Shown here: in pieces, positions 7,355 through 61,054 of the stretch | Layout: each line of letters begins with the position of its first letter | How positions within the stretch are numbered: position 1 is the first letter of the stretch | Sequence record: PZ402300.1 | Length of the DNA: 64,000 nucleotides | Reading direction: 5' to 3' (one strand) | Source of the DNA: a phage | The notes under the pieces: generated by a model | Told to the model about the DNA's origin: nothing | The model's input: the letters and a program-made list of their open reading frames with translations, nothing else | Database searches by the model: none | Made by a program: the position numbers and the translations under genes

Positions 7355-8197
7355 ATGATTATGTCTTGTTCTGCTGAGGTAGAAGCTAACCGACTCCTAG
7401 AAGAGTTAACTAAGGGTGATGACTTTACCCTTCCTGATATTGATATGTCTGGTCCTGAATGGGATATCCCTGGTGGGGATACTTCTCCAATCTTTGGTGC
7501 CATTACCAAAATAACCAATGAATCTCTTACTACCCGTGAAGTAGGAGGTAGTGGTACGTTTGATGCATTAATGGAATCTGCACACAATCACCTTAAAGCT
7601 GAGTTTAAGGCTAACCGAATTACAGGTGGTGAATATACCAAAGCCTATATTGCTATGATGGAATCATGCATGAGTAATGCTGTTCAGTTCTTACTTGGTC
7701 GTGACCAGGCATACTGGGCTGCTGCATTGGCACAGATTCAAGCAGTTACTGCTCGTGTTACATTGGCTACTTCTAAAGCTCAGTATGTGCTGGCTAAGAT
7801 TCAAGCACTGTCTTCTAAGAGTGAATACGCTCTTACTAAGATGAAGATTGCTACTGAGTCCGAGACGTACTGTGCTGCACTGTTTAACGTCGACCAGATG
7901 TTACCCCAACAGCTTAAGCTGATTACTGAACAGACCGAATCACAACGTGCACAGACACTGGATACTCGTACCGATGGTGCAGTAGTTAAGGGTTCTGTAG
8001 GCAAACAGAAAGAACTGTACTCCCAACAGATTACCTCTTACCAACGTGACGCAGAAGTTAAGGCATCTAAGTTGTTTACTGATGCATGGATTACTCAGAA
8101 GACTATTGATGAAGGCTTGAATCCACCTAATGGTTTCACTAACGCAAGTATTGATACCATTTTGACCAAGTTGAAGTCTAACAACGGGCTGAACTAA
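7355..8197 (+). CDS. Hypothetical virion protein (N4 gp54 position)
   Basis: 280 aa ORF; alternative start ATG 7361 with GAGGA RBS. Confidence 0.45.
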
Positions 8198-8198
8198 T

Positions 8199-10856: not shown

Positions 10857-10869
10857 CAGGAGAATCCCC

Positions 10870-11313
10870 ATGGATTTGTCATTCTTAACAGGCAACCAAA
10901 CCCCACAGCCAGCTGCTATGTCTTGGATGTCTAATAACAATCAAAACTTTAATACCCCGGCTATGAACTATAATCCCGGTGCAGCTATTGGTATGGGTAC
11001 GAATTTTGGAGCATCTGCCCCTAATACTTTCATGTCTGGCTCGGCTAGTCAGTTAGGCATGAACATACCTACCTTCCAATTAGGACTGGGTGCACTTGGT
11101 TCATTAGCTAATATCTACAGTGGTTTCCAGGCTAATAAGTTAGCCAAAGACCAGTTGAACTTTGCTAAGAGTGTTACTAACACTAACCTGAATAATCAGA
11201 TTAAGTCTTATAACACTGCACTGGAAGACCGTGCTCGTAGCCGTGCTGTTGCAGAGAACCGTGACCAATCTACTGCTGATGCTTACATTGCAGCTAATAA
11301 ATTAACCCGTTAA
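10870..11313 (+). CDS. Hypothetical virion protein (N4 gp52 position)
   Basis: Track ORF 10849..11313; in-frame ATG 10870 follows AGGAG at 10857-10861. Confidence 0.4.
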   Translation: MDLSFLTGNQTPQPAAMSWMSNNNQNFNTPAMNYNPGAAIGMGTNFGASAPNTFMSGSASQLGMNIPTFQLGLGALGSLANIYSGFQANKLAKDQLNFAKSVTNTNLNNQIKSYNTALEDRARSRAVAENRDQSTADAYIAANKLTR

Positions 11314-11325
11314 TAGGAAACCATC

Positions 11326-13272
11326 ATGGCTCAAATTACATGGCGTAATGTTGATGCACCCAACTTCTCTGGAGTTGGTGACAGCATTCGCACATTTGGC
11401 AATATGATTGGTAACGCCACCTCCGGCTTAAGTGATGCACTGGGTAATTTCCAGAACGCTGCCAAGCAGGAGGCTGGCAATGCCGTCATGATGAATGCTA
11501 TGCAGTATCAAGACCCTACTGAGTATCGTAATGCTCTGGCATCCGGTGCATTATTTCAGGGGGTTGATCCTTCATTGGTAAGCCAGCGTACTCTACAGAA
11601 TCTGGATGAGCGAGCAGGTACTCTTCTGACTCAACAAGGTCAACAGGGAATCAATGACTACAATGCTTATCGTTTTGGTCGTTTACAGAATACTGACTCT
11701 GCATTAGATAATGCATCTCCAGCTATTCGTTTACTGTCTGAGGCTTATCAGTCTGGTGACCAGAACCGTATTAATGCTGCATTGAGTCAGACTCGTGAGG
11801 CACTGTCTGCACTTCCTGCTGACCAACAACTGGATATGTTGAGTCGTCTGCAAGGTCAGGGTGGTCAGGCCATTAACCAAGCACAGAACCGTTTTGATTT
11901 GGGTGTGGCTCAGCGTAATGATGCTGATTCACAAGCTGCATCCGGTATATTGACAGATATTTTCCGCAGTGCTTCTACGCCTATGGATGCTCTTACACTG
12001 GCAGAATCTGCCATGAAGAATGCTTCTCCTGGTGTACGTGCTGCAATTATGCGAGGTGTGAACCAGAGATTCCCAGGTACTTATGCCACGTCTGCTTCTG
12101 GCTCTGCTCCTGGTACTGCCGGTACTCGTTCTGGTTCTCCTTATGATGTAACCTACACTTTTGCTGCTACTGATAAGCCCATTACCGAGATGACTCTCGG
12201 TGAGGTTACTAATCATCAACAAACTATGATTAATAACCCATCGCAAGGTCATTCTCCTGTAGGTGCATTCCAGATTAATAAAGCCACTCTGGAAGACTAT
12301 GCTCCTAAGGTGCTTGGTTCAGATTGGCGTAATCAGCAAATGACTCCTGAAGTACAGGACAAAATAGCTGAAGCAATCTTCAATGACCGTAAGAGTGGTA
12401 ACCTTTCTAAGACTTGGGCTGCATTGCCTGACCTGGGTGTAGGTGGTTATAAGGATATGCCTTGGAGTGAAGCACGTCAGTTAATTGCACAGGCAGAAGT
12501 AGGTGCATCCCTTGAACAGTTACAGACCCAGCAAGTAGTCTCAAACATGGCAGGCAATACAGTTGCTGCTCGTCAGTCTGAAGATAATACTGGAACCATT
12601 ACTGCTAACTATGCTCGTGCATTACGTGATAACTCTACCATTGGTGAAGTAGCAGACCGTCTTCTTAAGGATGCTTTTAAAGGTTCTGAGAAAGGATGGA
12701 TGATTGCTCGATTGAATGATGTTATGCAGGAATCTGGGCAGTCTCCTGCTGTAGCTGCTGAGATTCTTAAGCAGTCTACTACTAACGTACCGGAAAGAAT
12801 GATTAGTCGGGCACTTGATGCACTTAACCCGTTCATCTCCAATGAAGGTGGTAATGGTATTCGTATTGATGATACCGTTGCCAGAGAACTAGCACGTTCA
12901 GTACGACGTGGGGAAGGTATTGAAGCTACTGCTCGTGATAATGTTCTTACTCAGGTACAGGGTAATATTGCTAATGCCCAGAACCAGGTAAACCAAGCAG
13001 AAGCTTTGCTTGCTGATACCCGTCGTCGTGTAGCTGCTGGACAAAGTGGACTTGCTGCTACTATCCCTGCTCGTGAAGCTGAGTTAGCAAGAGCACGTGC
13101 TGCACTGGATGCTGCTGTTAATACTGTGGTAGCTAACCAGGGAAATCTGGTTCCACAGAACTTCCGTTCTAATGCTTCAGTAGAACGTGAGCGTAGTCGT
13201 GAAGATGAAGAACGAGCTAAACGTTATCGAAAATTGGCAGAGGGTTTACCTCCCTATATGCAACCTCGATAA
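11326..13272 (+). CDS. Virion protein with a lytic-transglycosylase-like motif (N4 gp51 position)
   Basis: 648 aa; segment TEMTLGEV…GHSPVGAFQINKATLEDY resembles the E…G(L/A)(M/F)Q core of lytic transglycosylases. Confidence 0.45.
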   Translation: MAQITWRNVDAPNFSGVGDSIRTFGNMIGNATSGLSDALGNFQNAAKQEAGNAVMMNAMQYQDPTEYRNALASGALFQGVDPSLVSQRTLQNLDERAGTLLTQQGQQGINDYNAYRFGRLQNTDSALDNASPAIRLLSEAYQSGDQNRINAALSQTREALSALPADQQLDMLSRLQGQGGQAINQAQNRFDLGVAQRNDADSQAASGILTDIFRSASTPMDALTLAESAMKNASPGVRAAIMRGVNQRFPGTYATSASGSAPGTAGTRSGSPYDVTYTFAATDKPITEMTLGEVTNHQQTMINNPSQGHSPVGAFQINKATLEDYAPKVLGSDWRNQQMTPEVQDKIAEAIFNDRKSGNLSKTWAALPDLGVGGYKDMPWSEARQLIAQAEVGASLEQLQTQQVVSNMAGNTVAARQSEDNTGTITANYARALRDNSTIGEVADRLLKDAFKGSEKGWMIARLNDVMQESGQSPAVAAEILKQSTTNVPERMISRALDALNPFISNEGGNGIRIDDTVARELARSVRRGEGIEATARDNVLTQVQGNIANAQNQVNQAEALLADTRRRVAAGQSGLAATIPAREAELARARAALDAAVNTVVANQGNLVPQNFRSNASVERERSREDEERAKRYRKLAEGLPPYMQPR

Positions 13273-13287
13273 AATCTTACATACTAA

Positions 13288-13314
13288 TAAAGCCCCATCC
13301 GGGGCTTTTCTCTT
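13288..13314 (+). terminator. Rho-independent terminator immediately upstream of the vRNAP gene
   Basis: AGCCCC-ATCC-GGGGCT hairpin followed by TTTCTCTT. Confidence 0.5.
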
Positions 13315-13375
13315 ACATTCACTTACTGTACAGTGAATCTTCTTATACGATATAAGTTTGAACAGGAATCATGCT

Positions 13376-16300
13376 ATGTCAACATTTGACCGTCTGGCAG
13401 GTTTCGCAGACAGCATCACTACTGCTAAGCAAGTCGATGTCTCTACTGCAACCTCTCGGAAACAAGCTGAACAAGGGCAAAGCCCTTTCCAACTAACCCC
13501 ACAGAACGCTTACCAATTACAGGCAGGTCGTGCTGGTGACTTAGGTGCTGGTGCATTTGACCCAGGTTCTATTCAGGCAGATTTTACTAATGCCTCCCCC
13601 CTTGAAATCGTAAACAAATATGGCAATGAGCAGGGAATGGACATTCTCAATGCTCGTGTCAATGCAGCTAATGCTGTTCGTCGTGATTTAACTAAGAGTC
13701 GTACATATGGTGAAGCACTTGGTGATACCCTTTTTGGTGTTGGTCTTGGTGTTGCTAATACCCTTGGGGGCATTGCTGCTCTTGGCACAGGTTTGGTCAA
13801 TGATAATGCCGGGGCATCCATTGCTTCCGGTCTTGACTGGTTAAACAAAGGTGTACACAACCTACAGTCTGATGCACTGAATGCTCGTCGTAATGTAGTA
13901 CAGAACCAGAACGTAATATCTGCACAGGAAAATGAGAAACTCTATAAGCAGGATGTTGCTAAAGGGGAAAGTGAACTCGTTGCTTCTCTGTCTCGCATTG
14001 GTCGTGATGCTTACGATTCCGTTGCTAACACTTTATCCAATGGTATGGCTGCTACAGATGGTCTGGCTGAGGGTGTTGGTTCTCTGTTTACAGGTGGTCC
14101 ATTAATTCGTGGTGTATCTGCACTTGGTAAAGTAATGGTAGGTGGGGATAAAGCTGTTAAGGGTATTACCTTAGCTGCTGAATTAGGTTCACGTCCTGCA
14201 CGTACTGCATTAGCTACTGGTCGTGTTGCTGCACCTGCTATGGCAATTGGTGGTATGGAAGCTGGTGGTGCATACCAACAGACTGCTAATGAAATTATGG
14301 AAATGCCATTCAGTGAACTGGCTGCTAAATCTTCTGTATACCAACAGCATATTAAAGACGGTCTGCCTCCTGAAGAAGCTCGTCGTCAGACTGCATCTGA
14401 AACGGGTATTACTGCTGCTGGTTTAACTGCTCCGATTGCTGCTCTTACTGGCCCATTAGTATCCAAGTTTGAACTTAACCCACTTAAGGTAGGTTCACTG
14501 GCTGGTGCTGGTTCTAATATGCTACGTGAGACTGTAGAAGAAGGTATTCAGTCTGGTACAAGTCAGTTTGCACAGAACAAGGCAATTCAGGGTAATGTAG
14601 ATGCTAATCGTGACCTGCTTAAAGGTGTTGGTGAACAAACCGGGCTTGGTGCATTGTATGGCTTTGGCTCTGCTGGAGTTGCTCAAGCTCCTGGTGCAAC
14701 TGTTAAGGCTGCTGGTGCTGCCGTTGGTCCTGCTGTACGTACTACCCTGGCTGGTGCTTCTCTGGCTGGTAAGGCACTAGCAAAAGTAGCTTCTCCTATT
14801 ACTAACATCCTGGTTCAACGTGGAGAAGAAGTAGCTAAACGTAACGAACAAGCATCCCCTGTATCAGACGCTACAGTTAATGCTGCTGCACAAGAAGCTA
14901 CTGCTCAGGCAGAACAAGCGCAAGCAACTGTACAGGAAGCAGTAGATGCAATGGACATTTCTCCAGAAGAGAAAGCTGCTGCTACCCAATATGCTGCTGA
15001 CTTAACTCAGGTAATGAAGTTTGACCCAGTAGAACTGGAACAAGCTAGTCCTGCAATCCGTGAAGCTGTTTCTGGTTCCACTAACCGTGTTGAAGCTATT
15101 CAGAAGATGGCTGACTTGGTTAATACTGCTGAAGACCCTAATGTTCAAATGGAAGCTGCAATCCAGATGTATGACAACATCATGTCTATGGATAGCTTCA
15201 TTAACCGTGACCCGGGTGCATTAGCTAATCTGGAACAAGGTTCTCCTGCTGCTAATATTGTTGACCAGTTCTCTGGTCTGATGGCTAACGTTCAGAATAC
15301 ACCAAAGGTACTTCGTGCATTCCGTGCTATTCATTCTATGATTCAGGAACAGGCTGAAGCAGGTAAACTGAAAGCTACTGAGGAAGCCAATCAAGCTCAG
15401 GCAAACAATATTGCTATGGCTGCTGATATGTCTCCAGAAGTACTGGATGCAGATTCAGTGAACATGGTTCTGAAACATGCAAGTGAAGGTAAGATTACAC
15501 TGGGGAATCGTCAGCGTGCTGCCCTGCAATCTGCTGCTGCTCTATTGCAAGGAGCACGAGAATTTGACGCTAAAGCAGAAGAACTAGGCTTACGTCCTCA
15601 AGACATTGTTAGTAAACAGATTAAAACCGACGAATCTCGTTCTAATGAAGGCCAGTACTCTGCGTTGCAACATGCTAAACGCATTCGTTCTGCGTACAAC
15701 TCTGGTAACTTCGATTTGGCTTCCGCTTATCTCGACGACTTTATGAAGTTCGCCCAGCACATGCAGAATAAGGTCGGAGCGTTGAATGAGCATCTGATTT
15801 CTGGGAATGCGGATAAAAATAAGTCTGTTCATTATCAGGCTCTTACTCCCTCGCGTGAATGGGTACGTAGTCGTACTGGCCTCGGTGTCAATCCGTATGA
15901 TACCAAGTCGGTTAAGTTTGCCCAGCAAGTAGGACTGGAGGCCAAGACCGTAGCTGATATTGCTAACGCACTTGCTACGGCTTACCCGGAGCTTAATGTT
16001 TCTCATGTGAAAGTTACCCCATTGGATTCACGTCTGGACAAACCTGCTGCCCAGGTAGTTAAAGAGTTCCGTCAGGGCAATCTTGATGCTGCTCAATCCC
16101 AACAGACCAATGAACCAGTGAATCAGGTTGATGAAACTCCTGTTACGAAACAGGAACCAGTTACCCCTACTGTACAGACTAAACCCTCTGTTAGTGAAGC
16201 TGTTAAAACAGAATCCACTATTAAAGAGTCTAAACCACAGTCTGTAAAAGAACCTGAGAACCAGTCTGAAAAACAGGATGTTACCCTCACTAATGAGGAT

Positions 16301-19300
16301 ACCACTCAGGAAGTGGCTGAAACTAAAACAGAAATGGAAACAGTGTTCCCTGTCTATAACAATGAAAAGACACCGAACCAGTTCATTAAAGCATTTTCTC
16401 TACCAGAAGAACCTAAGTCTCGTACCATTGGTTCTGAGTCTCCTCTGACCGATGTTAAGAAAGCACTGTCTTCTGCTGCTCGTTTCGAAGCATTCACTCA
16501 AAAAGAAAATAACGCCCTCACAAGTGATGTGATTAAGCGTTATCAGGACTTATTTGATTTTGGTGAAATTCTGAAGACTACCCTGTCTGACCGTCTGGCT
16601 AAGTTCCTTGCTAATAAGAATGTTGGTAAACGTTTTGCAGAAGGTACTGAGGCTAACCGTTGGGTAGGTGGTAAGTTACTTAACATCGTAGAAAAAGATG
16701 GTGACACCTTTAAGTTCAATGACCAGTTGTTAGAGACTGCTGTACTTGCTGGTCTGCAATGGCGATTAACTGCTACACAGAATGCTGCTGTTAAAGACAT
16801 GAAAGACGTAGCTGCTATTACTGGTGTAGAAGCATCTCTGCTACCAGAAGGCATTTTGGCTGATTTCGAAAATGCTCAGACATTGGTTGAAGCTACTAAC
16901 TCACTGGCTCAAAAGATTGAATCTTATTGGGGACTTAACCGTAATGCTGATGCACCACTTGGTTATACCAAGGGTATCCCAGTGGCAATGGCTACAGAGA
17001 TTCTATCTTCTTTTATTGAGATGGGTGTAGTTAAAGAGTCTATGCTGGATGTGTCTGAGATTGACCCAGAATCTAAAAAGACTGTTGGTCTGTATACCAT
17101 TGATAAGTTAGAGGATAATGATGCCATTAATAATTTCCCTACTGCTATTGAGGAAGCTGTCCTTGTAGAACCAGCAGAGAAACTGTACCTAGGTGATGAT
17201 ATTCCTTCCGTGGCTCCTACTCAGTTACGTAACCCTGCTGTCCGTAATACTCCAGAACAGAAAGCTGCTCTTAAAGCAGAACAGGCTACTGAGTTCTTTG
17301 TACATACTCCAATGGTTCAGTTCTATGAGGCGTTAGGTAAAGACCGTATCCTCGAACTGATGGGTGCAGGTACTCTGGATAAAGATTTACTTAATAAGAA
17401 CCATGCTAAATCTTTGGAAGGCAAGAATCGTTCAGTAGAGGATTCTTATAACCAATTGTTCTCTGTTATTGAACAGGTAAGAGCACAGAGTGAAGACATT
17501 TCCACTGTGCCTATTCACTATGCATACAATATGACTCGTGTTGGTCGTATGCAGATGTTAGGTAAATATACCCCCCAATCAGCTAAGCTGGTTCGTGAGG
17601 CTATTTTACCTACCAAAGCTACTCTGGATTTATCGAACCAGAACAACGAAGATTTCTCTGGCTTCCAGCTTGGACTGGCTCAGGCATTAGGTATCAAAGT
17701 TCATAAAATGACTCGTGAAACTATGTCAGAGGAACTTACCAAAGCTCTGGAAGGTAAGCTGAAACCTGCTGTAGATATGATGGTTGAGTTTGATAAGTCT
17801 GGATACTTACCTACTGATGCAGTGGATATCTTAAGAACATCTCTGGGTAATGATAAATCCTTTGTGGCTCTCATGGCTCTTATGGAATATGCCCGTTACC
17901 TTAACAGTGATGACCGTGCCAACTTTAATACTCCTTTGTACGTTGAAGCCGATGGGGTAACCAACGGACCAATCAACGCAATGGTATTAATGACTGGTGG
18001 TAAGTTCACTCCAAACTGGATTAAGAATACTGCCAAAGGTGGTTTGTTCTTTGGTAAAGCTGGTAAGACTATGAATGAGCATCATACGCAGGATGACAGT
18101 GTTGACCTGTATGAAGCATCTACAAATAGTCTGCAATTCTATCTGAATGAATTACGTAATACTTACAGTAAAAATATTCCAGTTATAAACCAGATGGACC
18201 ATCTCCAGAAGTTAATGAACTTGTTCATTAAAGACTTCAATCTTAAGGAAGACGGTACTCTGGACCTGAAGCGTGGTATCGCTAAAAACCCACTTACCAT
18301 TACCATCTATGGTTCTGGTGCTCGTGGTATTGCAGGCAAGATGGTAAGTGCAATTACTGATACCATCTATGAACGCTTAAGCGACGTTCTGAAAGCCCGT
18401 GCTGTTGACCCTAACATTCCCCCAGCTATGGCGATGTTTGGTAAGGAGGCTGCGTCTGAGGCTGATGCTCAGGCTATGCTGGATACCTTCCTTACTTCTA
18501 TGAAAGCGTTGACTGGGAATATTCCAGCTAAGCGTAAAGGTAAGTTATTCATTAAGGAAGTAGACGGTGTTCTGACTGGTAAGTTAGACCCCCAGGAGTT
18601 TACTGTATCTGGTAATGCTCTTAAGAACTTACAAGAGAATATGCTGCATTTCTTTGTTGAGCCAATGAGGCAAAGTATCCGGTTCACTGTTGGTGAGGGG
18701 TTGATGCACTCTACTGAGAATTTGCAGAAAGCTACCCAGATTCAATCTCTGGTATTGCAGGATATGTTCCAACAAGCAGTACAGGCTAAGCTGGCAGAAA
18801 AAGAAAAAGACCCAACATGGAAGAAGGGTGATTTCTTAACGCAGAAAGAATTGAATGAAATCCAGAATAGCTTAGCTCCACTGGCTCCAATGATTAAGAC
18901 TGGTTCCCAGACTTTCTACATTGCTGGAAGTGAGAATACTGACGTTGCTAACCAAGTATTGGCTACCAACTTAGATGACCGTATGCGTGTGCCAATGAGT
19001 ATCTATGCTCCTTCGCAGGCAGGTGTTGCAGGTATTCCCTTTATGACCATCGGTACTGGTGATGGCATGATGATGCAGACCCTTTCTACTATGAAAGGTG
19101 CTCCGAAGAATACCCTGAAAATCTTTGATGGTATGAACATTGGTATCAATGACATTACTGATGCAAGTCGTAAAGCTAATGAGGCTGTATATACTTCCTG
19201 GCAGGGTAATCCTATTAAGAATGTATATGAGTCTTTCTCTAAGTTTGTTAAGAATGTTGATTTAAATAAGCTGTCCGATTCAGCAATAGATGCTATTGCA

Positions 19301-22300
19301 AAGTCTGCTTTAGACTTTGAGCAACGTGCTCATATTGCCAGGGTAGATGGTGATAGAGATTATAAAATTTCTATGATTAGAGATTCTGGTATTGCATTAA
19401 TTGAGCGTAACCTACGTAACATTGCTTTGGGTGTAGATATTCGTCACAAGGTAATGGACCAGGTACAGGTCACTGTTGACCAGATGGCTGCTGTTGGTGC
19501 TCCTTATGTGAACAACGGTAAAATCTCTCTGGAAGGTCTGACTATAGACCAGCAAGTAGCCAAGCTGAACGAACTGTTTGATGCTGAATTAAACAAGCGT
19601 CGTGATGCAGTACGTGCTGCTAAAGCGGAACCAACGAAGGCAGAACCAGTGAAGGAAGTGCCGGTGAAAGTTGTACCAGCTATGGAGAAGGTAGGTCGTG
19701 TACTGAAGTCTGGTGTACGCCTGTTGTCTAATGCTGCTATTACTAAGCTGGCTAAAGAGATGTCTCCTGAACAGCAAGCAGTATTGAAAGAAATACAGAA
19801 ATCTCTTGCTGCTAAAGACTACAAGGTTGTTTACGGTACACCTTCTCAACTGGATGCCTACGCTATTGAGAAGAACATTACTCGCCCAGCACCAGAAGAT
19901 ATTGAAGCTGCTGAAGCAGGTAATGCATATGGCTGGACTAACTTTGAAGATAAGACCATCTACTTAGTTACCCCTTCCTTAGAGACTTTGGTTCATGAAT
20001 TAGTACATGCTTCTACTTTTGAATCTGTACTGGCTCACTACGAAGGCACCCCTAATGAAGCTGTCCAGAACATTGAAGACCTGATGAACCAGTTCCGTGC
20101 TTTGGATGTTAAGGATGAATCCCCGGTAGTACGTGAAGCATATGCCGATGCACTGAATACCATTAATGGTCATTTGTCTAATGGCTTTATTGAACCAGCA
20201 ATGGCTAAAGCTGCTGCACTGAATGAGTACATGGCTTGGGGTTTAACCAACCGTGAACTTATTAGTAAGCAGAAGAAAACCACTGCACTTAAGACTATGG
20301 TTCAGGCTGTATATGAAGCAATCAAACGTTTGGTATTCGGACGTAAGAAAGCTCCAGCTAATGCAGATGATATGTTCTCGGGCTTATTGTTTAACTCTGC
20401 TGTAGTTATGCGTGGGCAGGCTCCTACTGCTGCTGTAGCCAAAGACACTACCCTGTTCCATAACAAAGCATATGGTGACAATACTCGTCTGGAAGAGTTA
20501 GGGAAAACCTTCGATAAGTTGATTACTGACTACATTGGTTCAGAACCAGTACAGCAAGTAATTCGTAAAGGTAAGTTTTCCGATGCAGTAGTGAATGCAA
20601 CTAAAGTAACTCGTGATGTTCAGGCTCATGGCTTCACCATGAATATGCAGGAACAGCGTCTCTTTACTAACATTGTTGCTGCTCTCGCTACCGAGGCTGC
20701 TATTAACCCTGCTGCTCTGGCTCGTGCACAGGAATACTACACGCATGTTACTAAGAATCTGACTGTTGAAGCATTTATGTCTGACCCTGATAGTACTAAC
20801 CCTGCTGACCGTTACTATGCACAGCAGAAGTTCGATACCATCATGGGTGCTAACAACATTGAGTTTGATGCACAAGGTCGTTCTTCCTTACTGCCTACCT
20901 TTGTTGGTCTGGCAATGGTAAGCGAAGAGGTACGTAAGGTACTGGCTTATATTCCTGTTATGAAAGCAGATAAGAAATCAGGCAATACCGTTGATGCAAT
21001 GCTGACTAATATCGGTACTGCTGCAATGGCTAGTTTGAATGCTCGTGTAGCAGGCGATACTAAAGCCACTAACGTACAAGAAGGTATGGATGCACTGGCT
21101 CAGACAATCATGCAGACCAGCCTTAATGCAGAGTCCTTCTATGATTCCGTTGCTACTCCTACCGGTAATGCTATTGACCGTGCTAACCAGTATCTGGTGG
21201 ATTCTATTGATGTACTGTCTACCCGTGCTTTAGAAGGTGCTCGTGAAGTTGCAGCTAATACCAAGAACCCATTGGTTAAAGGTGCTGCTCATGCTGCACA
21301 ACTGGTAGCTGCTATTGCTACAGAGAAGAATGGTTCAATCGTAGCTGAGGGTGTTATGGCTGCAATGAACCAAGGTAAAGTATGGCAACCTTTCCATGAC
21401 CTGGTTAATGACATAATCGGTCGTACTAAGAGCAATGCTTCTGTATACGATTTGATTAAAGCAGTACGTGCACAGGTACAAGCTGACCGTCAACAGTTCC
21501 GTGAACACCTACCTACCACTATCGCATCCAAATTCAGCCGTAAGCTGACTAATGATGAGTGGAAAGCAATGCATACCGGTATGGGTAAAACTGACTTAGC
21601 TGTTCTGCGTGACACTATGTCTCTGGCTGAAATCCGTGACCTACTGACTGACCAAAAGATTGTTGACCGTGAGGTTAATAAACTGGAAGCAGATTTGCAG
21701 AAACAAGCAGGACGTAACTGGCCTCTGATTAATCGTAAATCTAAGCAACTGGCTCAGTACATGATTAATGGTACAGTCGGTAATAACCTGCTGCGTAATG
21801 CTACTGCAATTTCACGTTTGCTGGGTGAACGTAAGACTACACGTTCTGTTGTAGATGTAGCTCAGCTGGATAAACTGATTACTTTATATGCACTGGAAGC
21901 AATGAATAAGACTGACCGTGAGATGTTATCTTCACTGGCTCAGACAGAAATTGAAGGTATGGACTTTGCTACATCTTACCTGGTTGGCCAGCGTAAAGAT
22001 GAAATGGCTAAAGTCAAGTCTGATAGTCGTGCAACTCTGAACCAGTACAAAGGGTATATTCCTGGTGAGACTAAACAGGGTGTTAACCTGATTGTTGCTG
22101 AAGATAGTCAGTTTGTTGATTTGATTGAGAAATCCTATGTACGTCTGGGGACTTATCAAGGTAGCTCTGCTAATCGTGGTCCAGCACGTAGTTACTACTT
22201 TGCACCAGTACAGGCACAGGCTCCATTCTCACAGGGTATCCTACAGAACGTTCGCAATACTGCTGGTGGTGTAGACCTCGGCACAGGCTTTACGATGGGA

Positions 22301-51453: not shown

Positions 51454-51483
51454 CAAAAAAAGACCTCCCTTCAATAGGGAGGT
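51454..51483 (-). terminator. Rho-independent terminator
   Basis: Minus strand GACCUCCC-UAUUGAA-GGGAGGUC followed by U7. Confidence 0.6.
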
Positions 51484-51534
51484 CAAACTTGAGGGTTTCA
51501 CTTCAGGGTTTATAACCCCAAACAAAGAATACCC

Positions 51535-52368
51535 TTATTCTGCAACAGTAACAGGGATGGTTACATCGACAGTACCGTTGGTAACTACTACAGAAGTAGC
51601 ATCACCAGCAGCTACTGGTTTAACTGTCAGTACGTTACCGGCAATGGTAGCCGTAGCACGTCCAGACTCTGGAGCAGTCTTGATAGACAAAGCACCAGAA
51701 GAAGAACCAACAGGCATAGCAACAATTGTTACGGTCTTACCATCAGTAGTATCGGCAGCAACAGACAGAGCCAGTGAAGCAGGAGTAGCTACCAGAGAGC
51801 TTGCTTCGTAGTAGCCTACAGCCAGCAAAGACTCATCTTCTACCGTGGTTCCATTAGCATCAGTAACAATCACCTTATAAGTACCGGCAGAGGCAGCTGT
51901 TACGTCTTTAAGAGTCAATGTTGCAGCAGCAGCGGATGGGTTAGTACTGGAGCTAATATCAGCGAATGCTGCACCAGCAGTATCAGCTTTGAACTGCCAT
52001 TTATAAGTAAATGGTGCTTTACCACCTGCTACATCAACATGCCAGTTAATATCTTCACCTTCGATAGCAGAGACTACACGAGGCAGTTTGGTAGCAATAG
52101 TCAGTCGTGGAGTAGCTTTCATATCAATAGAGATAGACTGCATATCTACGATATTGTTAGGCCAGAAGCCTTCTTCAGATGGGTCTTTAGCAGAGCGTTT
52201 ATACAGCAGATCACGAACACCATGGAAGATAACTAAGCTATCTGGGTAAGTGGCATCTGGGTGTATAAAAGTACCTACTTCTACGGAACCACCCGGGATA
52301 GAACCACTGGCATCCAGTACAGTTGCGACATTAGTGGTTTTGTTAAAACCTACTTTCAAAGTTGGCAT
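51535..52368 (-). CDS. Ig-like (bacterial Ig-like fold) domain protein forming its own transcription unit
   Basis: Track ORF 51535..52431; start reset to ATG 52368 (GAGGAAA RBS; the track start would overlap a terminator hairpin); β-rich repeats such as KAPFTYKWQFK and GTYKVIVTDANGTTV. Confidence 0.5.
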   Translation of the reverse strand: MPTLKVGFNKTTNVATVLDASGSIPGGSVEVGTFIHPDATYPDSLVIFHGVRDLLYKRSAKDPSEEGFWPNNIVDMQSISIDMKATPRLTIATKLPRVVSAIEGEDINWHVDVAGGKAPFTYKWQFKADTAGAAFADISSSTNPSAAAATLTLKDVTAASAGTYKVIVTDANGTTVEDESLLAVGYYEASSLVATPASLALSVAADTTDGKTVTIVAMPVGSSSGALSIKTAPESGRATATIAGNVLTVKPVAAGDATSVVVTNGTVDVTIPVTVAE

Positions 52369-52413
52369 ATCAATTTCCTCATAAGTAAATGGCAGAGTTA
52401 GTATACATGACAG

Positions 52414-52444
52414 ATAAAAAAATAAACCCACCTAGTGGTGGGTT
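52414..52444 (-). terminator. Rho-independent terminator
   Basis: Minus strand AACCCACC-ACUA-GGUGGGUU followed by U-rich run. Confidence 0.55.
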
Positions 52445-52658
52445 AGCTATTTACACAGTAAATAGCAAAAGCTATCCATCCTGTCATTACAAAGCAACCA
52501 AGTGAGTATGCCCCATAGTAGTAGTAAGCAAACTTAGACTTGTGGGCACGGACTATTGTAGTCAGAACCAGTACAGATAAAGCTATCAGTATTAACTGAA
52601 AGATTACTTCAAAAGTGATTAGCATAGTTGCTACCTCCAAGCAAAAAATATGCCTCAC
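52443..52658 (-). CDS. Small membrane protein (2 TM)
   Basis: 71 aa; hydrophobic segments. Confidence 0.4.
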   Translation of the reverse strand: MRHIFCLEVATMLITFEVIFQLILIALSVLVLTTIVRAHKSKFAYYYYGAYSLGCFVMTGWIAFAIYCVNS

Positions 52659-52676
52659 TCCCGAAGGAATGAGGCT
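52643..52676 (-). terminator. Rho-independent terminator (UUCG loop) after the RNAP II large-subunit gene
   Basis: Minus strand GCCUCAUUCC-UUCG-GGAGUGAGGC followed by AUAUUUUUUGC. Confidence 0.55.
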
Positions 52677-52682: not shown

Positions 52683-52796
52683 TTAACTTAATGCATAATC
52701 TGTTTCAAGGATGTCCTGCCAGAGGCTGTCATCCAGCTTACCAGCAGAGAACTCTTGTCCCAGTACCTGAGTCAGGATGAATCCCAGTAAGTCACT
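52683..52796 (-). CDS. RNAP II large subunit, exon 3 (C-terminal segment ending …WQDILETDYALS); 5' boundary uncertain (alternative exon start 52898)
   Basis: C-terminus aligns with T7 RNAP C-terminal …LRDILESDFAFA; lies in track ORF 52683..52979 whose N-terminal part overlaps the HNH ORF and is presumed intronic. Confidence 0.45.
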   Translation of the reverse strand, partial: SDLLGFILTQVLGQEFSAGKLDDSLWQDILETDYALS

Positions 52797-53839
52797 CTTA
52801 GCAATGTCAGACAGAATCTGATTGTACTGACGACGCAGGTCATTACCGTAGTTAGGATGGCATCTAAAACCATTAGTTAAACGAGTCGTTAGCTCGCCCT
52901 TACCTTCCATGATTAACATGGAAGCCATACGTAGCATCTGCTTCTTTACGAGCAAGCATTGCCTCCTCAAGTGTGTCATACGTACCCAGACCGATCTGTT
53001 TACGATTGACTGTGATGTGTGCCTGGAATCTACCAGAAGGTAATATTCTTACACCATTCACTTTGCTTGATGTATTACGTGATAAACCCATATTCATCTG
53101 GTTCTGTCTACTGGTTACATTTCTCAGATTAGACCAACGGTTGTCGTTTCTAATGTGATTGATGTGATCCACCTGGTTAGGTGTTTCCCCTGTTTCCATT
53201 ATCCAGATTATTCGATGCAGTAAGTACTCTTTACGACCCAGACTAACAGATAAATAGCCTTCTTTGTGAGGATACCCCACAATTGTTCCGGCTAATCCAC
53301 TAGCAGAGTCGTAACGATGAGTTACTAGCCCACTTTCTCTGTCATACCGTAAAACCTTCTTCAAAGATTCTTGGGTAATAGTATCCAAGTCTTTTATCAG
53401 GTTCTTACAGGTAGGACATAGGTGGCCTATTGGACTCTTTTTAGCATCATAGAAGTTGCAAACAAACTCACTAGAGCATTGCTTACAACTACAGATAGCT
53501 GTGTACTTACCAGTTTTACGTAATATTTGGGAGTTATCTAACATATGGATTCCTTAGTAATTTTGCATACAATTTCAGATTGTATCCTAACCAAGGAAGT
53601 AAGTCTCCAGTTTTCACTGGAGTATCGGACTATATCATCACCCACTAATCAGTGGGGCAAGGCGCTTGGGTGGTCACTTGACTCACCTACTCTACTCACA
53701 TACGAAATGTTTTCGATAGTCTCTGAACCTTCCCTCATGGAGGGCTTGGCTGCTGATTGGCATATCCATAGGACTTAGCTTTCCAGCAATTCACCTTGTT
53801 TTCGACACGGATTACTCCGTGAAGGATCATTTATGTTTA
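52797..53839 (-). mobile_element. Group I intron 2 (approximate boundaries) carrying an HNH-AP2 homing endonuclease gene
   Basis: Minus-strand core elements AAUUGCUGGAAAGC (P-like), AAUCAGCAGCC (Q-like), GGUUCAGAGACUAUCG (R-like, 53714-53729) and GAUGAUAUAGUCCGAUAC (S-like, 53622-53639); begins with UAA directly after the exon-2 …VHD codon; P1 not identified, 3' end could be 52899 instead. Confidence 0.55.
52900..53544 (-). CDS. HNH homing endonuclease with C-terminal AP2-type DNA-binding domain (intron 2-encoded)
   Basis: 214 aa; HNH motif VDHINHIRNDNRWSNLRNV; AP2-like region VNGVRILPSGRFQAHITVNRKQIGLGTYDTLEEA. Confidence 0.7.
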   Translation of the reverse strand: MLDNSQILRKTGKYTAICSCKQCSSEFVCNFYDAKKSPIGHLCPTCKNLIKDLDTITQESLKKVLRYDRESGLVTHRYDSASGLAGTIVGYPHKEGYLSVSLGRKEYLLHRIIWIMETGETPNQVDHINHIRNDNRWSNLRNVTSRQNQMNMGLSRNTSSKVNGVRILPSGRFQAHITVNRKQIGLGTYDTLEEAMLARKEADATYGFHVNHGR

Positions 53840-54446
53840 ATCATGTACAGTCATTACAGGGAATGGCTTCTTAGGTAAAGTATTGAGCATAGTCAGGATT
53901 ACATCTGTATCAACCAATGCAATGGTTTCTGAGTCCAGATAATCAAAGATACGGGTAGACAGAAAGCCTGATTTCTCATAGCTAGCCCACAGTGTATTAA
54001 CCGTTTCATGACTAGCACCAGGGACAACTATGTATTCACCAGTTCCTTCACAGAGGGACTTAATATAGTTCACCTGGTTCACGTTGAAGTTACAACGACG
54101 CAGCATCTCACGTACCACCATCCCATCAATAGAGTGAGTGATGTTAGCAGAGAGCATACGGGTCTTCTCTTCAGTACCCTGAACCATACGAGTGATGTCG
54201 AATGGCTTACCTAAGAAGTTAACAGTCTGTACTTCAGGAACCATGACCTTAATGACAGCATGGAAGTTGTCAGGAAGTACCCATACGTAACGGTTAGCAT
54301 CAGGATTACCACATTGCAGTAAGAACTTGTTAAGTGCCCAAGGACCACTAGCAACAGTTTCCATTACATTCTCAAAAGTCTTGAGACGAATACCTTCACC
54401 GAATACTTCTTTAGGCTTGGCTTCTGAGCCGTAGAATGCAGTCATA
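53840..54446 (-). CDS. RNAP II large subunit, exon 2 (motif B second half through motif C region)
   Basis: Track ORF 53837..54445 (MTAFYGSEAK…VMTVHD); TAFYGS aligns to T7 RNAP TLAYGS (Y639); TLWASYEKSG aligns to T7 TVVWAHEKYG. Confidence 0.7.
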
Positions 54447-55253
54447 CATTATGTTCAAGGGAGGTCGTTAGTCTCCCCCAGCAGCTTTACCTGCATCTCA
54501 CTGTTACCAGTGAGTTCGGACTATATCATCTAGACTGATAGTCTAGCCGGGCGCTTCGACCCACTTGGGCCTACTCTACTAAGTTCAGCTTTCGCTGCTT
54601 TTCGATAGTCTCTGCACCTTTTGGTTATTCAAAACAGCATCACACATATCAATAAAGTCATTGGTTGAGAGGTCACCCTTTGCTCGGTTTACACACCAAG
54701 CTAACCATTGAACATTACCAATACTGTATCCTTTACTTGGTTCTATCTGATCTAGTGATAGACACAAAGGATGCCCCGATTCAATTACTAAGGTTGCTCC
54801 AGTTAAAGCACATTTAAATTCCTGTGATTTAAGGATTTCAAATAAATACTCTACTGTACAATCTGGCATAGGCTTACCAAACTTTTTACACCGACTTCTT
54901 GCATCCTTTAGTCTATGGGAGACTGCGGAATACCATTTACGGTGTTCTTTTGGTATTGCTTTACGAACTCCAGTTCCATTGTAACCTGGGTTCTTTTTAC
55001 GCCATTCACGAGCTACAGCAGCCTTACAGGGTCTGCAACGATTCTCGTAATTAGTTTTGAATCCTGTGAGTGATTTTTTAGTCTCTGGGAATACTTCGAT
55101 AGGAAGTAATTTTTTACATCGACTACATGTTTTGAATTCTGACATAGAATGCTCCTTATTGAACTTTCTACGCTACCAACTTGGCTCATGATTGTCCACT
55201 AGGGATGTTCCATGAGTTCACCCGGTTTTAAGGCCGCCATGACTTAAAGGTTA
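54447..55253 (-). mobile_element. Group I intron 1 (807 nt) carrying an HNH/His-Me-finger-like endonuclease ORF
   Basis: 5' exon ends GGCCGU paired with intron GCGGCC (P1, U-G at splice site); intron AGUCAUG pairs with exon-2 start UAUGACU (P10); terminal G at 54447; R-like GGUGCAGAGACUAUCG (54602-54617) and S-like GAUGAUAUAGUCCGAAC (54514-54530). Confidence 0.75.
54585..55145 (-). CDS. Intron 1-encoded putative homing endonuclease (zinc-ribbon N-terminus, degenerate HNH/His-Me finger core)
   Basis: 186 aa; CSRCKK…CRPCK Cys pairs; LSLDQIEPSKGYSIGNVQWLAWCVNRAKGD resembles an HNH-type nuclease core. Confidence 0.5.
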   Translation of the reverse strand: MSEFKTCSRCKKLLPIEVFPETKKSLTGFKTNYENRCRPCKAAVAREWRKKNPGYNGTGVRKAIPKEHRKWYSAVSHRLKDARSRCKKFGKPMPDCTVEYLFEILKSQEFKCALTGATLVIESGHPLCLSLDQIEPSKGYSIGNVQWLAWCVNRAKGDLSTNDFIDMCDAVLNNQKVQRLSKSSES

Positions 55254-55675
55254 ACGGCCTGCTTAGTGTCACTACGCTTAATACGTGATGCTTCACCAAG
55301 GATGTCCAGCATCTTGTGATAGATAACTGTATAGGCATCACGGCGTAATGGCTTACCATTCTCATCCATGTAGTTAACTACGTTACACAGTTCAGCAGCA
55401 GAGCGGTCACCAGTCAGACAGGCCAGTAACTGTAAGCCTGATGATGTAGCATCCAGAGCTACAGCATAACCAATAGGCTTACCTGCTTTCATATCTTTCC
55501 ATGCATTTACACCTGCAAAGAACAGAGCAGAATCCTCTGCTTCATCTACCAGATTAAGCAGGTTAGCTTCATTCTCATCGAACCAGGCAATACGTTCATC
55601 CCATGTCTTTTTATCTAAGCCATAGTTATTAGCGATATCTACTTTCAGGTATTCACGAGCGGTTAACAGTTGCAT
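55254..55675 (-). CDS. RNAP II large subunit, exon 1 (motif A through first half of motif B)
   Basis: Track ORF 55244..55675; ALDATSSGLQLLACLTGDRSAA aligns to T7 RNAP [22 protein letters not shown] (D537); ends RSDTKQAV. Confidence 0.7.
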
Positions 55676-55882: not shown

Positions 55883-56701
55883 TTAGTCTTCATTTACTAA
55901 CTCCTTATCAGCGAACTCCAGTACAGCTTTGTTGTAACTGGTTCCCTGATAGTTGATGTGGTAGCCACAGGCATAGGTACGCCCACGTTTGTCGTATTTG
56001 TGAGCTAAGGAGAAGTTATTACCTTCTTTGGTCACTAGCTCCATTACTTCCTTAGCTGTACGGCTGTACTTCTCAAAGGCTTTAACACGTTTTTCATAGT
56101 CCTGACGGGTTTCACCTTCTTTAGGTTTATCCATGTTAGGACGAGAGTCTTTTACATAATTAGCAACGTCCCAGTTAATGCAGAGACGTTGGTTATTCAT
56201 GCGGTTGATGTGGTCAAGACAGACATCCATCTCATGATGGTTCTTCTTGAGGATGATGCTACCTCTGCTTTCGTAGTAACCAGTATCACGATTACACTTA
56301 ACAGGCTTAGGAGCACTTACGATAGGCAATGGATACTGGAATGCTTCCAGTTCCATCTGTACATCTTCACTAATCTCATAGATAACACCTAACTTGTCGA
56401 TGGTAGGGTCATAGTTGAAGCAGTCATTCTCTGCCATCTTATACAGACAGTCAGCAATGTACTGAGCATCATCTGAATGACTCATGAGAGAGCCAATCAT
56501 AGTCTGGATGTCAGCACGCTTATGTAGAGCAATCTGCACCATTGCATCAATGAGCAGCTTATAATCAATTTCCAAATAGGCAGCAAAAGCCTTAAAGTCA
56601 ATTTCTTCGGAGTCCTCGAATTCCTTCCTCATGCGAGGGAGTAATTGATTCTTGTTGAAAAGGATTTCAAGTCGCTTCTGATGTTCAATAGATGAGTACA
56701 T
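55883..56701 (-). CDS. RNAP II small subunit (N4 gp15-like; N-terminal portion of a split T7-like RNA polymerase)
   Basis: 272 aa; C-terminal KYDKRGRTYACGYHINYQGTSYNKAVLEF aligns to T7 RNAP DWRGRVYAVSMFNPQGNDMTKGLLTL. Confidence 0.65.
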   Translation of the reverse strand: MYSSIEHQKRLEILFNKNQLLPRMRKEFEDSEEIDFKAFAAYLEIDYKLLIDAMVQIALHKRADIQTMIGSLMSHSDDAQYIADCLYKMAENDCFNYDPTIDKLGVIYEISEDVQMELEAFQYPLPIVSAPKPVKCNRDTGYYESRGSIILKKNHHEMDVCLDHINRMNNQRLCINWDVANYVKDSRPNMDKPKEGETRQDYEKRVKAFEKYSRTAKEVMELVTKEGNNFSLAHKYDKRGRTYACGYHINYQGTSYNKAVLEFADKELVNED

Positions 56702-59106: not shown

Positions 59107-59146
59107 GGTTATTTCTCCTATTTAAATATATATCTAACTATTCAGG

Positions 59147-59867: not shown

Positions 59868-59970
59868 AATGGTTACTCCTTCATCTAATATAAATCTATA
59901 TCTATCTGATTACTGTTTCAGTACCCTTCGTCTAAAGATACTCAAAAAGTAGAAATAGCCTTTCGCATAG

Positions 59971-61035: not shown

Positions 61036-61054
61036 TTTGATTATCTATCTAATG

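Follow-up and report, generated by a model that had tools for sequence, protein, structure and literature searches.

The window analysed here, a 64,000-nucleotide stretch of sequence record PZ402300.1, belongs to a phage of the genus Gamaleyavirus (N4-like, Schitoviridae) with a nucleotide identity of about 92% to phage Bp4. Its late structural genes, including those for the major head protein and a 3479-aa virion RNA polymerase, lie on the plus strand at 1..23797, and its early and middle genes lie on the minus strand, as does gene 17. At the gene 17 locus the following features were found, given in the direction of transcription:

52652..52675, minus strand: third predicted intrinsic terminator, behind the final gp16 exon; 10 pairs, 6 of them GC, a UUCG loop and a T-run
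52443..52625, minus strand: gp16.1, a 60-aa hydrophobic protein encoded between the two upstream terminators (PHROG 12530, E 7.5e-36)
52416..52444, minus strand: upstream predicted intrinsic terminator, 8-bp stem and 4-nt loop; AACCCACCACTAGGTGGGTT then TATTTTTTT
52400..52405, minus strand: -10-like hexamer TATACT, putative promoter element of the gene 17 cassette
52392..52393, minus strand: invariant GC at which transcription may start, 7-8 nt 3' of the hexamer
52376..52380, minus strand: Shine-Dalgarno sequence GAGGA, conserved in the spacer alignment
51535..52368, minus strand: gene 17, 277 aa, capsid decoration protein by homology, ortholog of N4 gp17 (the '32 kDa virion protein')
52105..52368, minus strand: domain DI (about aa 1-88, boundary approximate), N-terminal capsid anchor by homology
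51820..52104, minus strand: domain DII (about aa 89-183, boundary approximate), I-set/Ig_3-like beta-sandwich
51538..51819, minus strand: domain DIII (about aa 184-277), C-terminal and Ig-like by homology, its whole extent aligned with N4 gp17
51455..51484, minus strand: downstream predicted intrinsic terminator, GACCTCCCTATTGAAGGGAGGTC then TTTTTTT; 9-bp stem and 5-nt loop

The original prediction of an open reading frame with a strong ribosome binding site at this place holds for the minus strand, where gene 17 runs from an ATG at 52368..52366 to a TAA at 51537..51535 and is preceded by GAGGA at a distance of 7 nt. A 298-aa version starting from a GTG at 52431, as given in a mechanical list of open reading frames, was rejected: this GTG falls within the stem of the upstream terminator, has no ribosome binding site and misfits the N-terminus of gp17, the ATG being consistent with the start of N4 gp17 in its PDB entry. 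The third exon of gp16 ends at 52683, 5' of the start of gene 17 at 52368. Between the two lies gp16.1, whose counterpart in Bp4 is orf77, annotated as 'similar to gp16.1 of G7C', and which has no equivalent at the N4 or Moo19 locus; because of the third terminator at 52675..52652, after gp16, this small gene is bracketed by terminators as well. The neighbouring gp16 is itself interrupted by two insertions that carry HNH, of which one is clearly a group I intron while the other matches less well; the putative exon junctions are at about 55244/54445 and about 53840/52872. The pieces of gp16 have been entered as separate 'RNA polymerase' open reading frames in related records; the split gene is a separate curiosity that matters mainly for annotation.

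The gene 17 protein aligns from end to end with N4 gp17 (PDB 9e99_J; residues 1-277 against 1-279, E 4.9e-118, 72% identity), and it also matches Moo19 gp28 (9d7z_J; E 1.1e-90, with 60% identity in the multiple alignment) and the whole of PHROG 2973 (E 4.7e-101, profile positions 1-310 of 310). Its counterparts in Bp4, Uz-1 and PD38 are annotated as gp17 or capsid decorating protein. By this homology, the open reading frame at 51535..52368 is the N4 gp17 ortholog of an N4-like podophage and codes for its capsid decoration (cement) protein; the guess that it codes for a virion decoration protein is thus borne out by two orthologs, N4 gp17 and Moo19 gp28, both located on capsids by cryo-EM. Likewise, judged by homology to DI-DIII of N4 gp17, of which all three Ig-like domains have been solved in the N4 capsid at 2.45 A (PMC11768535), the protein has Ig-like beta-sandwich domains, so that its identity to N4 gp17 upholds the beta-rich, Ig-like nature proposed earlier.

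The three domains differ in how far they are conserved. DI is the only part found in all Schitoviridae homologs, those from distant phages matching no further than residues 1-57 to 1-105, and in an alignment of nine phages from five host genera 13 of the 14 invariant columns fall within residues 1-76. Amongst the invariant residues of DI are G27, G32, F34, H36, P37, D38, S44, V51, L55, Y56 and M76, and the conserved motif G-x-F-x-HPD ... HGVRDLLYK ... DMQ is present. DII is matched by two Pfam families at scores below their gathering cut-offs, namely Ig_3 at residues 96-169 (26.1 bits, cut-off 30, E 1.2e-5) and I-set at residues 93-175 (21.7 bits, cut-off 23.7, E 2.2e-4), and it shows weak similarity to the Ig domain of T5 pb10 (5lxk, E 7e-4) and to 8zvi. 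A single-sequence AlphaFold model was poor overall (pLDDT 48.9) and usable for DII alone, which it renders as all-beta with a pLDDT of 70-82 for residues ~100-180. The suggested assignment to Big_2 did not stand, since no match to Pfam Big_2 (PF02368) was obtained in the gene 17 protein at E <= 1; Big_2 modules are found behind the same DI anchor in KP8, phiAxp-3, the P. putida phage Holyagarpour and RiverRider (37-111 bits).

What the protein does in the virion can be read from its orthologs. Moo19 gp28 was seen on the capsid by cryo-EM and was also identified in virions by mass spectrometry (PMC11654681), and the KP8 homolog belongs to the structural proteome with 84% coverage in the mass spectrometric analysis (PMC6950046). 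The number of copies per virion was given as 175 for N4 (PMC3715699) and amounts to about 180 in the solved capsids, at three per asymmetric unit. In N4 gp17, DI sits on the quasi-3-fold axes, and DIII is flexible, exposed to solvent and in minimal contact with the capsid (PMC11768535). Going by the solved N4 and Moo19 capsids, DI of the gene 17 protein would dock at the quasi-3-fold axes of a T=9 capsid, DII would lie flat against the P-domain of a major capsid protein, and DIII would be flexible and exposed to solvent; the three copies per asymmetric unit would strengthen the contacts between capsomers.

In all Schitoviridae lineages compared, gene 17 lies on the early/middle strand, 3' of gp16, which encodes the large subunit of the middle RNA polymerase (RNAPII). 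This comparison covered N4, G7C, Bp4, Moo19, Erwinia phage Frozen, Klebsiella phage KP8, Achromobacter phage phiAxp-3, Xanthomonas phage RiverRider and Holyagarpour as well as 22 IMG/VR loci, and in the KP8 paper the location has been termed "usual for N4-like phages" (PMC6950046). The terminator-flanked place beside the RNA polymerase genes is therefore a conserved layout of the family and not an anomaly of the window genome: an insulated location on the early strand had been predicted correctly, but its description as unexpected does not hold for a layout shared by nine named phages and 22 IMG/VR loci.

Both flanking hairpins are predicted intrinsic terminators, each consisting of a GC-rich stem-loop and a U-run on the transcribed strand, and the prediction of rho-independent terminators on both sides of the gene was thus confirmed. 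The upstream terminator (52444..52416) has a dG of -13.2 kcal/mol (z -4.1), and the downstream one (51484..51455), which follows the stop codon of gene 17 at a distance of 50 nt, has a dG of -17.1 kcal/mol (z -4.7); for the third, at 52675..52652, the values are -18.8 kcal/mol and z -6.5. Strong minus-strand terminators number about 11 in the 40-kb early/middle region, with three within 1.25 kb at gene 17. Hairpins are present on both sides of gene 17 in 31/31 related loci examined. In the upstream stem, five of the eight pairs show compensatory changes across 12 phages, the one non-canonical cell being an AC at the outermost pair, and the downstream hairpin is identical in G7C and most Gamaleyavirus loci and has functional equivalents in all other lineages. 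In the GenBank record of G7C, both flanking structures are already annotated as stem_loop. Since the protein, its virion role, its position and the stem-loops are described in the literature or in GenBank for N4, G7C, KP8 and Moo19, the finding as stated was already known and adds nothing new.

The spacer between the upstream terminator and the start codon contains a further conserved element. The hexamer TATACT is the sole 5/6 match to TATAAT within 140 nt 5' of the gene 17 ATG; it reads CATAAT in N4, G7C, KP8 and L018, and all four fixed letters of nATAnT (A, T, A and T) are kept in each of 12 sequences, drawn from five lineages, whose flanks diverge. The GC that follows corresponds to the invariant columns G58 and C59 of the spacer alignment. 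At the -35 position the sequence is GGTTTA, a 1/6 match which falls within the stem and T-run of the terminator, and because a -35 element is missing a scan for consensus promoters reports no sigma70-type site in the gene 17 spacer. Hexamers resembling a -10 element also occur at gene 17 in Erwinia, Achromobacter, Xanthomonas and Stenotrophomonas phages.

Other candidate signals were set aside. The early-type hairpin promoter of the virion RNA polymerase, vRNAP (GCTCCGC...TATGG), is absent 5' of gene 17 and has three copies in the window, at 61.45, 60.5 and 56.7 kb. An 8-mer, TACTAACT, is common to the leaders of genes 17 and 17.1, and with 8 matches against 3.9 expected it is not clearly enriched, as 4 of 100 shuffles reach 8. 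The motif TAGATA(G/T)ATA, which is present at three early-region intergenic sites and absent 5' of gene 17, is not enriched either (13 against 12.3 expected).

The explanation that we consider best overall, at a probability of roughly 0.85, is that gene 17 codes for a capsid decoration protein in an insulated cassette with a promoter of its own, probably of the late class read by the host polymerase. With its anatomy as described, gene 17 would work as a monocistronic unit. An early hairpin promoter lies at 56730-56745, upstream of the gp15 and gp16 genes, and both genes are transcribed by vRNAP (PMC13434306), so that the terminators at 52675 and 52444 would close the early unit. One or two terminators would thus stop the early transcripts carrying the RNAPII genes gp15 and gp16, the upstream one insulating gene 17 from them; as these transcripts would end before gene 17, it is proposed that the structural protein is therefore not made from them. 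Expression would start instead from a dedicated promoter in the 56-nt spacer, comprising the -10-like TATACT and the GC 7-8 nt further 3', without a -35 element. The strong ribosome binding site and a highly biased codon usage would favour a high output, and the downstream terminator would shield the small middle genes that follow from transcription of the cassette. With an optimal-codon fraction of 0.685, gene 17 ranks third amongst 49 genes, after those for the major head protein (0.755) and SSB (0.743), the latter being the gp45 homolog at 28219..29016; the codon bias of gene 17 fits an abundant product and says nothing on timing. The hexamer and the codon usage together point to a cassette that is insulated and highly expressed, and that the host polymerase probably transcribes late.

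As to the polymerase, we lean towards a promoter of the N4 late class, transcribed by the host sigma70 RNA polymerase upon activation by the phage SSB, in which case gene 17 would be a late gene lying within the early/middle strand. We infer timing and polymerase here because usable transcript data for gene 17 of N4-like coliphages, or time-resolved transcriptomes of N4 or of Gamaleyavirus, were not found in the literature; the only transcript maps of N4-like phages found there are those of LUZ7 and LIT1, which are phages without gp17. No virion structural proteins are synthesised when rifampicin is present (reviewed in PMC4496689). N4 late promoters resemble sigma70 promoters weakly (PMC9163698), and the spacer hexamer fits such a weak resemblance, being a 5/6 -10-like element with invariant A2 and T6 and a poor -35. 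In LUZ7, the early/middle strand carries about 20% of the late start sites (PMC9163698). [quoted passage not shown] Also against it, the N4 late-strand intergenic regions have no motif in common with the gene 17 spacer, and amongst them the vRNAP leader alone is comparable in layout, with a terminator followed by TATAGT.

The same protein and the same cassette might be read by another enzyme, if the spacer held a middle promoter for the heterodimeric phage RNAPII with gp2. This would place gene 17 first among the middle genes past the early region, and its product would build up before capsid assembly. [quoted passage not shown] Moreover, the minimal RNAPII promoter, from -7 to +2, is highly AT-rich, and the AT-rich stretch around the hexamer, with its conserved block (T)CATAATAA / GTATACTAA, could equally be one; the spacer has no -35 element. 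However, the lack of virion structural proteins under rifampicin argues against a phage enzyme (PMC4496689), and conservation falls precisely on A2 and T6, the key positions of a sigma70 -10 hexamer. Similar hexamers are found in distant phages, and the middle promoters of at least one distant relative (LUZ7) have another architecture, markedly unlike that of N4 (PMC9163698); an RNAPII motif is therefore unlikely to have been kept so widely. In addition, the AT-rich TAGATA-type motif of the three early-region intergenic sites is absent at gene 17. We regard transcription by RNAPII as possible but clearly less probable than transcription by the host enzyme.

A second alternative concerns the protein. 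The exposed Ig-like domains might act as an adhesin in the manner of T4 Hoc, besides or instead of cementing the capsid, and binding of host-surface or mucus glycans would raise the rate of encounter with hosts. In favour of such a role, the modules behind DI are swapped between lineages, being I-set-like in the window phage and Big_2 in KP8, phiAxp-3, RiverRider and the P. putida phage, and module swapping is the pattern expected of a part that faces the environment. However, N4 gp17 lies flat on the capsid and does not project as Hoc does (PMC11768535), the similarity to Hoc is not significant (3shs, E 0.42), and binding data for gp17 homologs were not found in the literature examined. An adhesive function appears doubtful.

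The order of terminator, promoter and gene is not universal in the family, since in Moo19, in the Erwinia phages and in others a promoter would not fit between hairpin and ribosome binding site. For such loci a bypass of the terminator can be conceived. Where the upstream terminator abuts the ribosome binding site, a -10 element would lie 0-3 nt 5' of the hairpin. With transcription beginning within its 5' arm, the RNA would be unable to fold into the terminator, and the polymerase would continue into gene 17. Early transcripts from gp16 would still terminate at the same hairpin. A single hairpin would thus insulate the gene against upstream transcripts and be invisible to the promoter of the cassette itself. 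Matches of 5/6 to TATAAT do occur 0-3 nt 5' of the hairpin in five of nine lineages with an abutting terminator (Erwinia phages Frozen and phiEaP8, Achromobacter phage phiAxp-3, Xanthomonas phage RiverRider and Stenotrophomonas phage Pokken), an observation made post hoc on lineages that are not independent and at sites where stop codons and A-tracts enrich such hexamers. Moo19 and L019 have 4/6 matches at the same place, as read from the sequences, and for comparison one of about ten other strong terminators of the window has such a hexamer, as judged by eye. The joint reading, in which the gene 17 cassette of all gp17-bearing Schitoviridae is a late host-polymerase unit, co-directional within the early/middle strand and equipped with a terminator bypass, is unlikely to hold in full.

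Less probable still is that gene 17 has no promoter of its own and is expressed only by partial read-through of early and middle transcripts, with the terminators acting as attenuators that set the dose. This would account for the hairpins and T-runs that abut the ribosome binding site without a spacer in Moo19 and in Erwinia, Pseudomonas and Achromobacter phages, and elsewhere in the window, too, a terminator is directly followed by a ribosome binding site (at 52625, 44429 and 38210); in addition, read-through is extensive and time-dependent in the N4-like LUZ7 (PMC9163698). However, at about 180 copies per virion and with the third-highest codon bias, supply by leakage past two strong terminators of dG -18.8 and -13.2 is improbable, and the conserved hexamer and GC of the spacer would be left without an explanation. 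Finally, a non-structural early or middle protein, e.g. a cell-surface or exclusion factor, is most improbable, as its sole support is the position among early and middle genes beside small membrane proteins, whereas orthologs with 60-72% identity have been located on capsids in cryo-EM structures and found in virions by mass spectrometry, and neither a signal peptide nor a transmembrane segment is evident in the gene 17 protein sequence.

The interest of the locus lies in its expression, as the literature examined holds no report of which of the three polymerases of N4-like phages transcribes the sole virion gene on the early/middle strand. Being short, sharply delimited and conserved in phages of hosts from E. 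coli to Xanthomonas, the gene 17 cassette offers a convenient test case for how a single gene can be switched to late, high-level expression without inversion, and it could serve as a compact insulated expression module.

Amongst the known systems, N4 is the closest. Its gp17 (PDB 9e99, 9lbz, 9ld7) is of nearly the same length as the gene 17 protein (279 against 277 aa) and has the same three-domain layout, its gene directly follows the RNAPII gene gp16, and both loci share the succession of terminator, 53-56-nt spacer with a -10-like hexamer, GAGGA ribosome binding site, gene and terminator. They differ in the hexamer, which is TATACT in the window phage and CATAAT in N4, in gp16.1 with its own terminator, added between gp16 and gene 17 in the genus of the window phage, and in the surface residues of DII and the DII-DIII linker of the protein. 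Shigella phage Moo19 likewise has a capsid decoration ortholog (gp28, by cryo-EM) whose gene follows that for RNAP2; here, however, the upstream hairpin and T-run abut the ribosome binding site, with 24 nt from the end of the stem to the ATG and no spacer hexamer, in place of which a weaker TAATAT lies at the hairpin's 5' edge.

T4 Hoc (3shs) and T5 pb10 (5lxk) resemble the gene 17 protein in being Ig-like capsid decoration proteins, non-essential ones. The capsid-binding domain of Hoc is C-terminal, whereas the conserved anchor of the gp17 family is N-terminal, and hoc lies among late genes. The match of 3shs_A to the gene 17 protein is limited to a 35-residue stretch and not significant, and N4 gp17 lies flat around the quasi-2-fold axes and forms no projecting fibre (PMC11768535). 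The label 'Hoc-like head decoration' given by annotation pipelines (PHROGs, RefSeq) is accordingly a functional name. By way of functional analogy, the gene 17 cassette may also be compared to gene 10 of T7, which forms a cassette of the phi10 promoter, gene 10 and the T-phi terminator and is read by the phage RNA polymerase within the late module. In both cases an abundant capsid protein is encoded directly 5' of a strong terminator and, for gene 17 putatively, behind a strong promoter of its own; in contrast to gene 17, T7 gene 10 has no terminator in front and stands in the late module, and the polymerase of gene 17 is probably the host enzyme.

With respect to protein identity, the product of gene 17, the ORF that drew attention by its Ig-like repeats, aligns end to end with N4 gp17 (the '32 kDa protein'; PDB 9e99, 9lbz, 9ld7; E 4.9e-118) and is further similar to the decoration protein of Moo19 (9d7z; E 1.1e-90), with identities of 72% and 60%, respectively, in a protein alignment of nine gp17 homologs (A1). 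PHROG 2973 'Hoc-like head decoration' is a further match (E 4.7e-101), and the syntenic gene of Bp4 carries the annotation 'gp17; capsid decorating protein'. Judged from its sequence, gene 17 thus belongs to the N4 gp17 family by every testable criterion, i.e., full-length homology, conserved anchor domain and synteny. [quoted passage not shown] Likewise, Moo19 gp28 was resolved on the capsid and is among the listed virion proteins of that phage (PMC11654681), and the KP8 homolog was detected with 84% coverage by MS (PMC6950046).

The proposed assignment to Big_2 did not hold, as the Pfam search gave no Big_2 match for the gene 17 product; matches to Ig_3 and I-set at residues 93-175 were both sub-threshold. 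The nine homologs are conserved mainly over their N-terminal 80-90 residues, distant phages match in this N-terminal part only, and behind it the distant homologs carry Big_2 modules in place of the I-set-like one. The family can therefore be described as one in which Ig-type modules are exchanged behind a conserved capsid anchor. Membership in the Hoc family was rejected, the similarity to T4 Hoc not being significant (E 0.42).

The 1.7-kb stretch around gene 17 has 92% identity with Escherichia phages Bp4, Uz-1 and PD38 and matches 56 phage records, nearly all of them from Gamaleyavirus (Schitoviridae, N4-like podophages). Late structural genes occupy the plus strand from 1 to 23797 of the window, and between about 24 and 64 kb the minus strand holds the early and middle genes, with the following landmarks:

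5376..6578, plus strand: major head protein (PHROG 1357)
13358..23797, plus strand: virion RNA polymerase (vRNAP), 3479 aa
56730-56745, 60494-60509 and 61453-61468, minus strand: three vRNAP-type hairpin early promoters (stem, CTCCG loop region, then TATGG/TTCGG; GCTCCGC...TATGG)
51484..51462 followed by TTTTTTT, minus strand: downstream terminator (dG -17.1 kcal/mol, z -4.7)
51535..52368, minus strand: gene 17, 277 aa (ATG at 52368, TAA at 51537..51535), with GAGGA 7 nt before the ATG
52444..52425 followed by TATTTTTTT, minus strand: upstream terminator (dG -13.2 kcal/mol, z -4.1)
52443..52625, minus strand: gp16.1, 60 aa, strongly hydrophobic (PHROG 12530, function not annotated)
52675..52652, minus strand: third terminator, 3' of the RNA polymerase gene (dG -18.8 kcal/mol)

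The strong RBS and the bracketing by rho-independent terminators are thereby confirmed, and the flagged span of 51454..52444 is delimited exactly by the downstream T-run at one end and the upstream stem at the other. Minus-strand terminators of comparable strength number about 11 in 40 kb by our own count, three of which cluster at gene 17. The insulated location on the early strand is real, but it is not unexpected, since it is the layout of the whole family in phages from N4 to RiverRider. In particular, the homolog follows the large-subunit gene of RNAPII (the heterodimeric middle RNA polymerase, gp15 + gp16) on the early/middle strand in N4, G7C, Bp4, Moo19 and Erwinia phage Frozen, as well as in Klebsiella KP8, Achromobacter phiAxp-3, Xanthomonas RiverRider and a Pseudomonas putida phage, and 22 IMG/VR contigs have it likewise after this gene. 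A GC-rich hairpin both precedes and follows the gene at every locus examined; in 12 sequences the upstream stem shows compensatory substitutions at five of eight pairs, its single non-canonical cell being AC at the outermost pair. The GenBank record of G7C already annotates a stem_loop on either side of gp17. The terminator-flanked architecture is real, ancient and already recorded; the observation was correct, and its biology already known.

The early promoter at 56730-56745, whose motif, like that of the other two, is the one derived from N4 in the KP8 paper (PMC6950046), directly precedes the RNAPII small-subunit gene (55883..56701) and sits ahead of gp15 and gp16. As the vRNAP of N4 was reported to transcribe these two genes (PMC13434306), the terminators at 52675 and 52444 appear to mark the end of an early transcription unit, just past which gene 17 would start. 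Between these two terminators, and thus itself bracketed, lies gp16.1, which occurs in Gamaleyavirus, is missing at the same position in N4 and Moo19, and has the look of a small, insulated gene inserted ahead of gene 17 and behind the early unit.

As a separate observation, gp16 itself (RNAPII large subunit, 52683..55675, minus strand) is split into three colinear exons, where its Bp4 counterpart (405 aa) is uninterrupted:

55244..55675, about 53840..54445 and about 52683..52872, minus strand: gp16 exons
54585..55145 and 52900..53544, minus strand: HNH endonuclease ORFs, one per insertion
53605..53848, minus strand: Rfam group I intron match (92.8 bits, gathering score 50)
54497..54769 (36 bits) and 55159..55215 (16.7 bits), minus strand: weaker Rfam group I intron matches

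The putative second intron breaks a conserved sequence between VHD and CF, which we take to be catalytic motif C of T7-like RNA polymerases. In a collection of 50,697 phage records, only two other phages, ZQ2 and Moonfish, have this intron, and their annotation treats the gp16 pieces as individual RNA polymerase ORFs; no close relative of the putative first intron was found in this collection.

The distance from upstream stem to ATG is 53-77 nt in N4, Gamaleyavirus, KP8 and one uncultured relative. Counted outside the T-run and the RBS, the invariant positions of the spacer in these phages are the A, T, A and T of nATAnT and a GC 7-8 nt downstream (52393..52392). The hexamer reads TATACT in the window (52405..52400), where it is the sole 5/6 match to TATAAT within 140 nt upstream of gene 17, and CATAAT in the others. 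By our reading the -35 position falls in the terminator stem and T-run without a match, and for this reason the consensus promoter scan reported nothing at the spacer. Canonical sigma70-type sites are strongly depleted overall as compared to dinucleotide shuffles (11 vs. 38.6±5.7 expected at 1-20 kb, 27 vs. 39±6 at 24-44 kb, 12 vs. 50±7 at 44-64 kb), which fits a phage that relies on polymerases of its own early in infection and on weak, activator-dependent promoters late in infection. The vRNAP gene, too, is preceded by a terminator and spacer (13273..13357, plus strand); the corresponding N4 spacer (locus L032, 15027..15126) contains TATAGT in a layout like that of gene 17, while the hexamer is not conserved in the window, where TTG is the start codon of the gene.

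Transcript data for gene 17 were not found in the accessible literature, and the weights given here to the possible polymerases are inferred estimates. Transcription by the host enzyme as a late gene is favoured, with a probability of roughly 0.55. In line with this, N4 late promoters bear only a weak resemblance to sigma70 promoters, and in the N4-like phage LUZ7 roughly one in five late start sites is located on the early/middle strand (PMC9163698); rifampicin prevents the synthesis of virion structural proteins (PMC4496689); and -10-like hexamers lie next to the gene even in Erwinia, Achromobacter, Xanthomonas and Stenotrophomonas phages. Such wide conservation would not be expected of an RNAPII motif, because the middle-promoter architecture of LUZ7 differs from that of N4 (PMC9163698). 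Transcription by RNAPII as a middle gene seems less likely. In its favour, gene 17 shares its region and polarity with middle transcripts, and the conserved block could also be the minimal RNAPII promoter, which is AT-rich from -7 to +2. Expression solely by terminator read-through is improbable. Elsewhere in the early region, three intergenic sites on the minus strand (59127..59140, 59889..59908, 61042..61051), each 3' of a terminator and 5' of an RBS, carry an AT-rich TAGATA(G/T)ATA-type motif. Over the whole genome this motif shows no enrichment (13 matches, 12.3 expected), and the three sites may be middle promoters of RNAPII or have arisen by chance.

A tighter arrangement is seen in Moo19, the Erwinia phages, phiAxp-3, RiverRider, Pokken and the Pseudomonas putida phages: hairpin and T-run lie directly against the RBS (stem end to ATG 19-32 nt where the scan called a terminator), leaving no room for a promoter. 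Five of nine such lineages have a 5/6 match to TATAAT 0-3 nt upstream of the hairpin and, by our reading, two more a 4/6 match at the same place; the hexamers upstream of the gp17-like genes at loci L004, L005, L007, L008, L027 and L030 are CATAAT, TAAAAT, TATCAT or TATGAT, and TAATAT in Moo19. Transcripts starting 6-8 nt past such a hexamer would begin within the hairpin's 5' arm and could not form the terminator. By eye, a like hexamer is found at only one of about ten other strong terminators of the window. That promoters are placed in these lineages to let their own transcripts skip the upstream terminator has a low probability: the pattern was noticed post hoc, in lineages related to one another and at positions biased by stop codons and A-tracts.

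With a share of 0.685, gene 17 is third among 49 genes in its use of E. coli-optimal codons, behind only the major head protein (0.755) and SSB, the phage late activator (0.743), and this fits a protein required at about 180 copies per particle. Taken together with the conserved hexamer and GC and with the terminators, this suggests that the unit is probably an insulated, monocistronic, high-output cassette. Early transcripts would be blocked by the upstream terminators, gene 17 would be driven by a dedicated putative promoter and a strong RBS, and the small genes further on would be shielded by the downstream terminator. The likeness of this regulation to the T7 gene 10 cassette is one of logic only.
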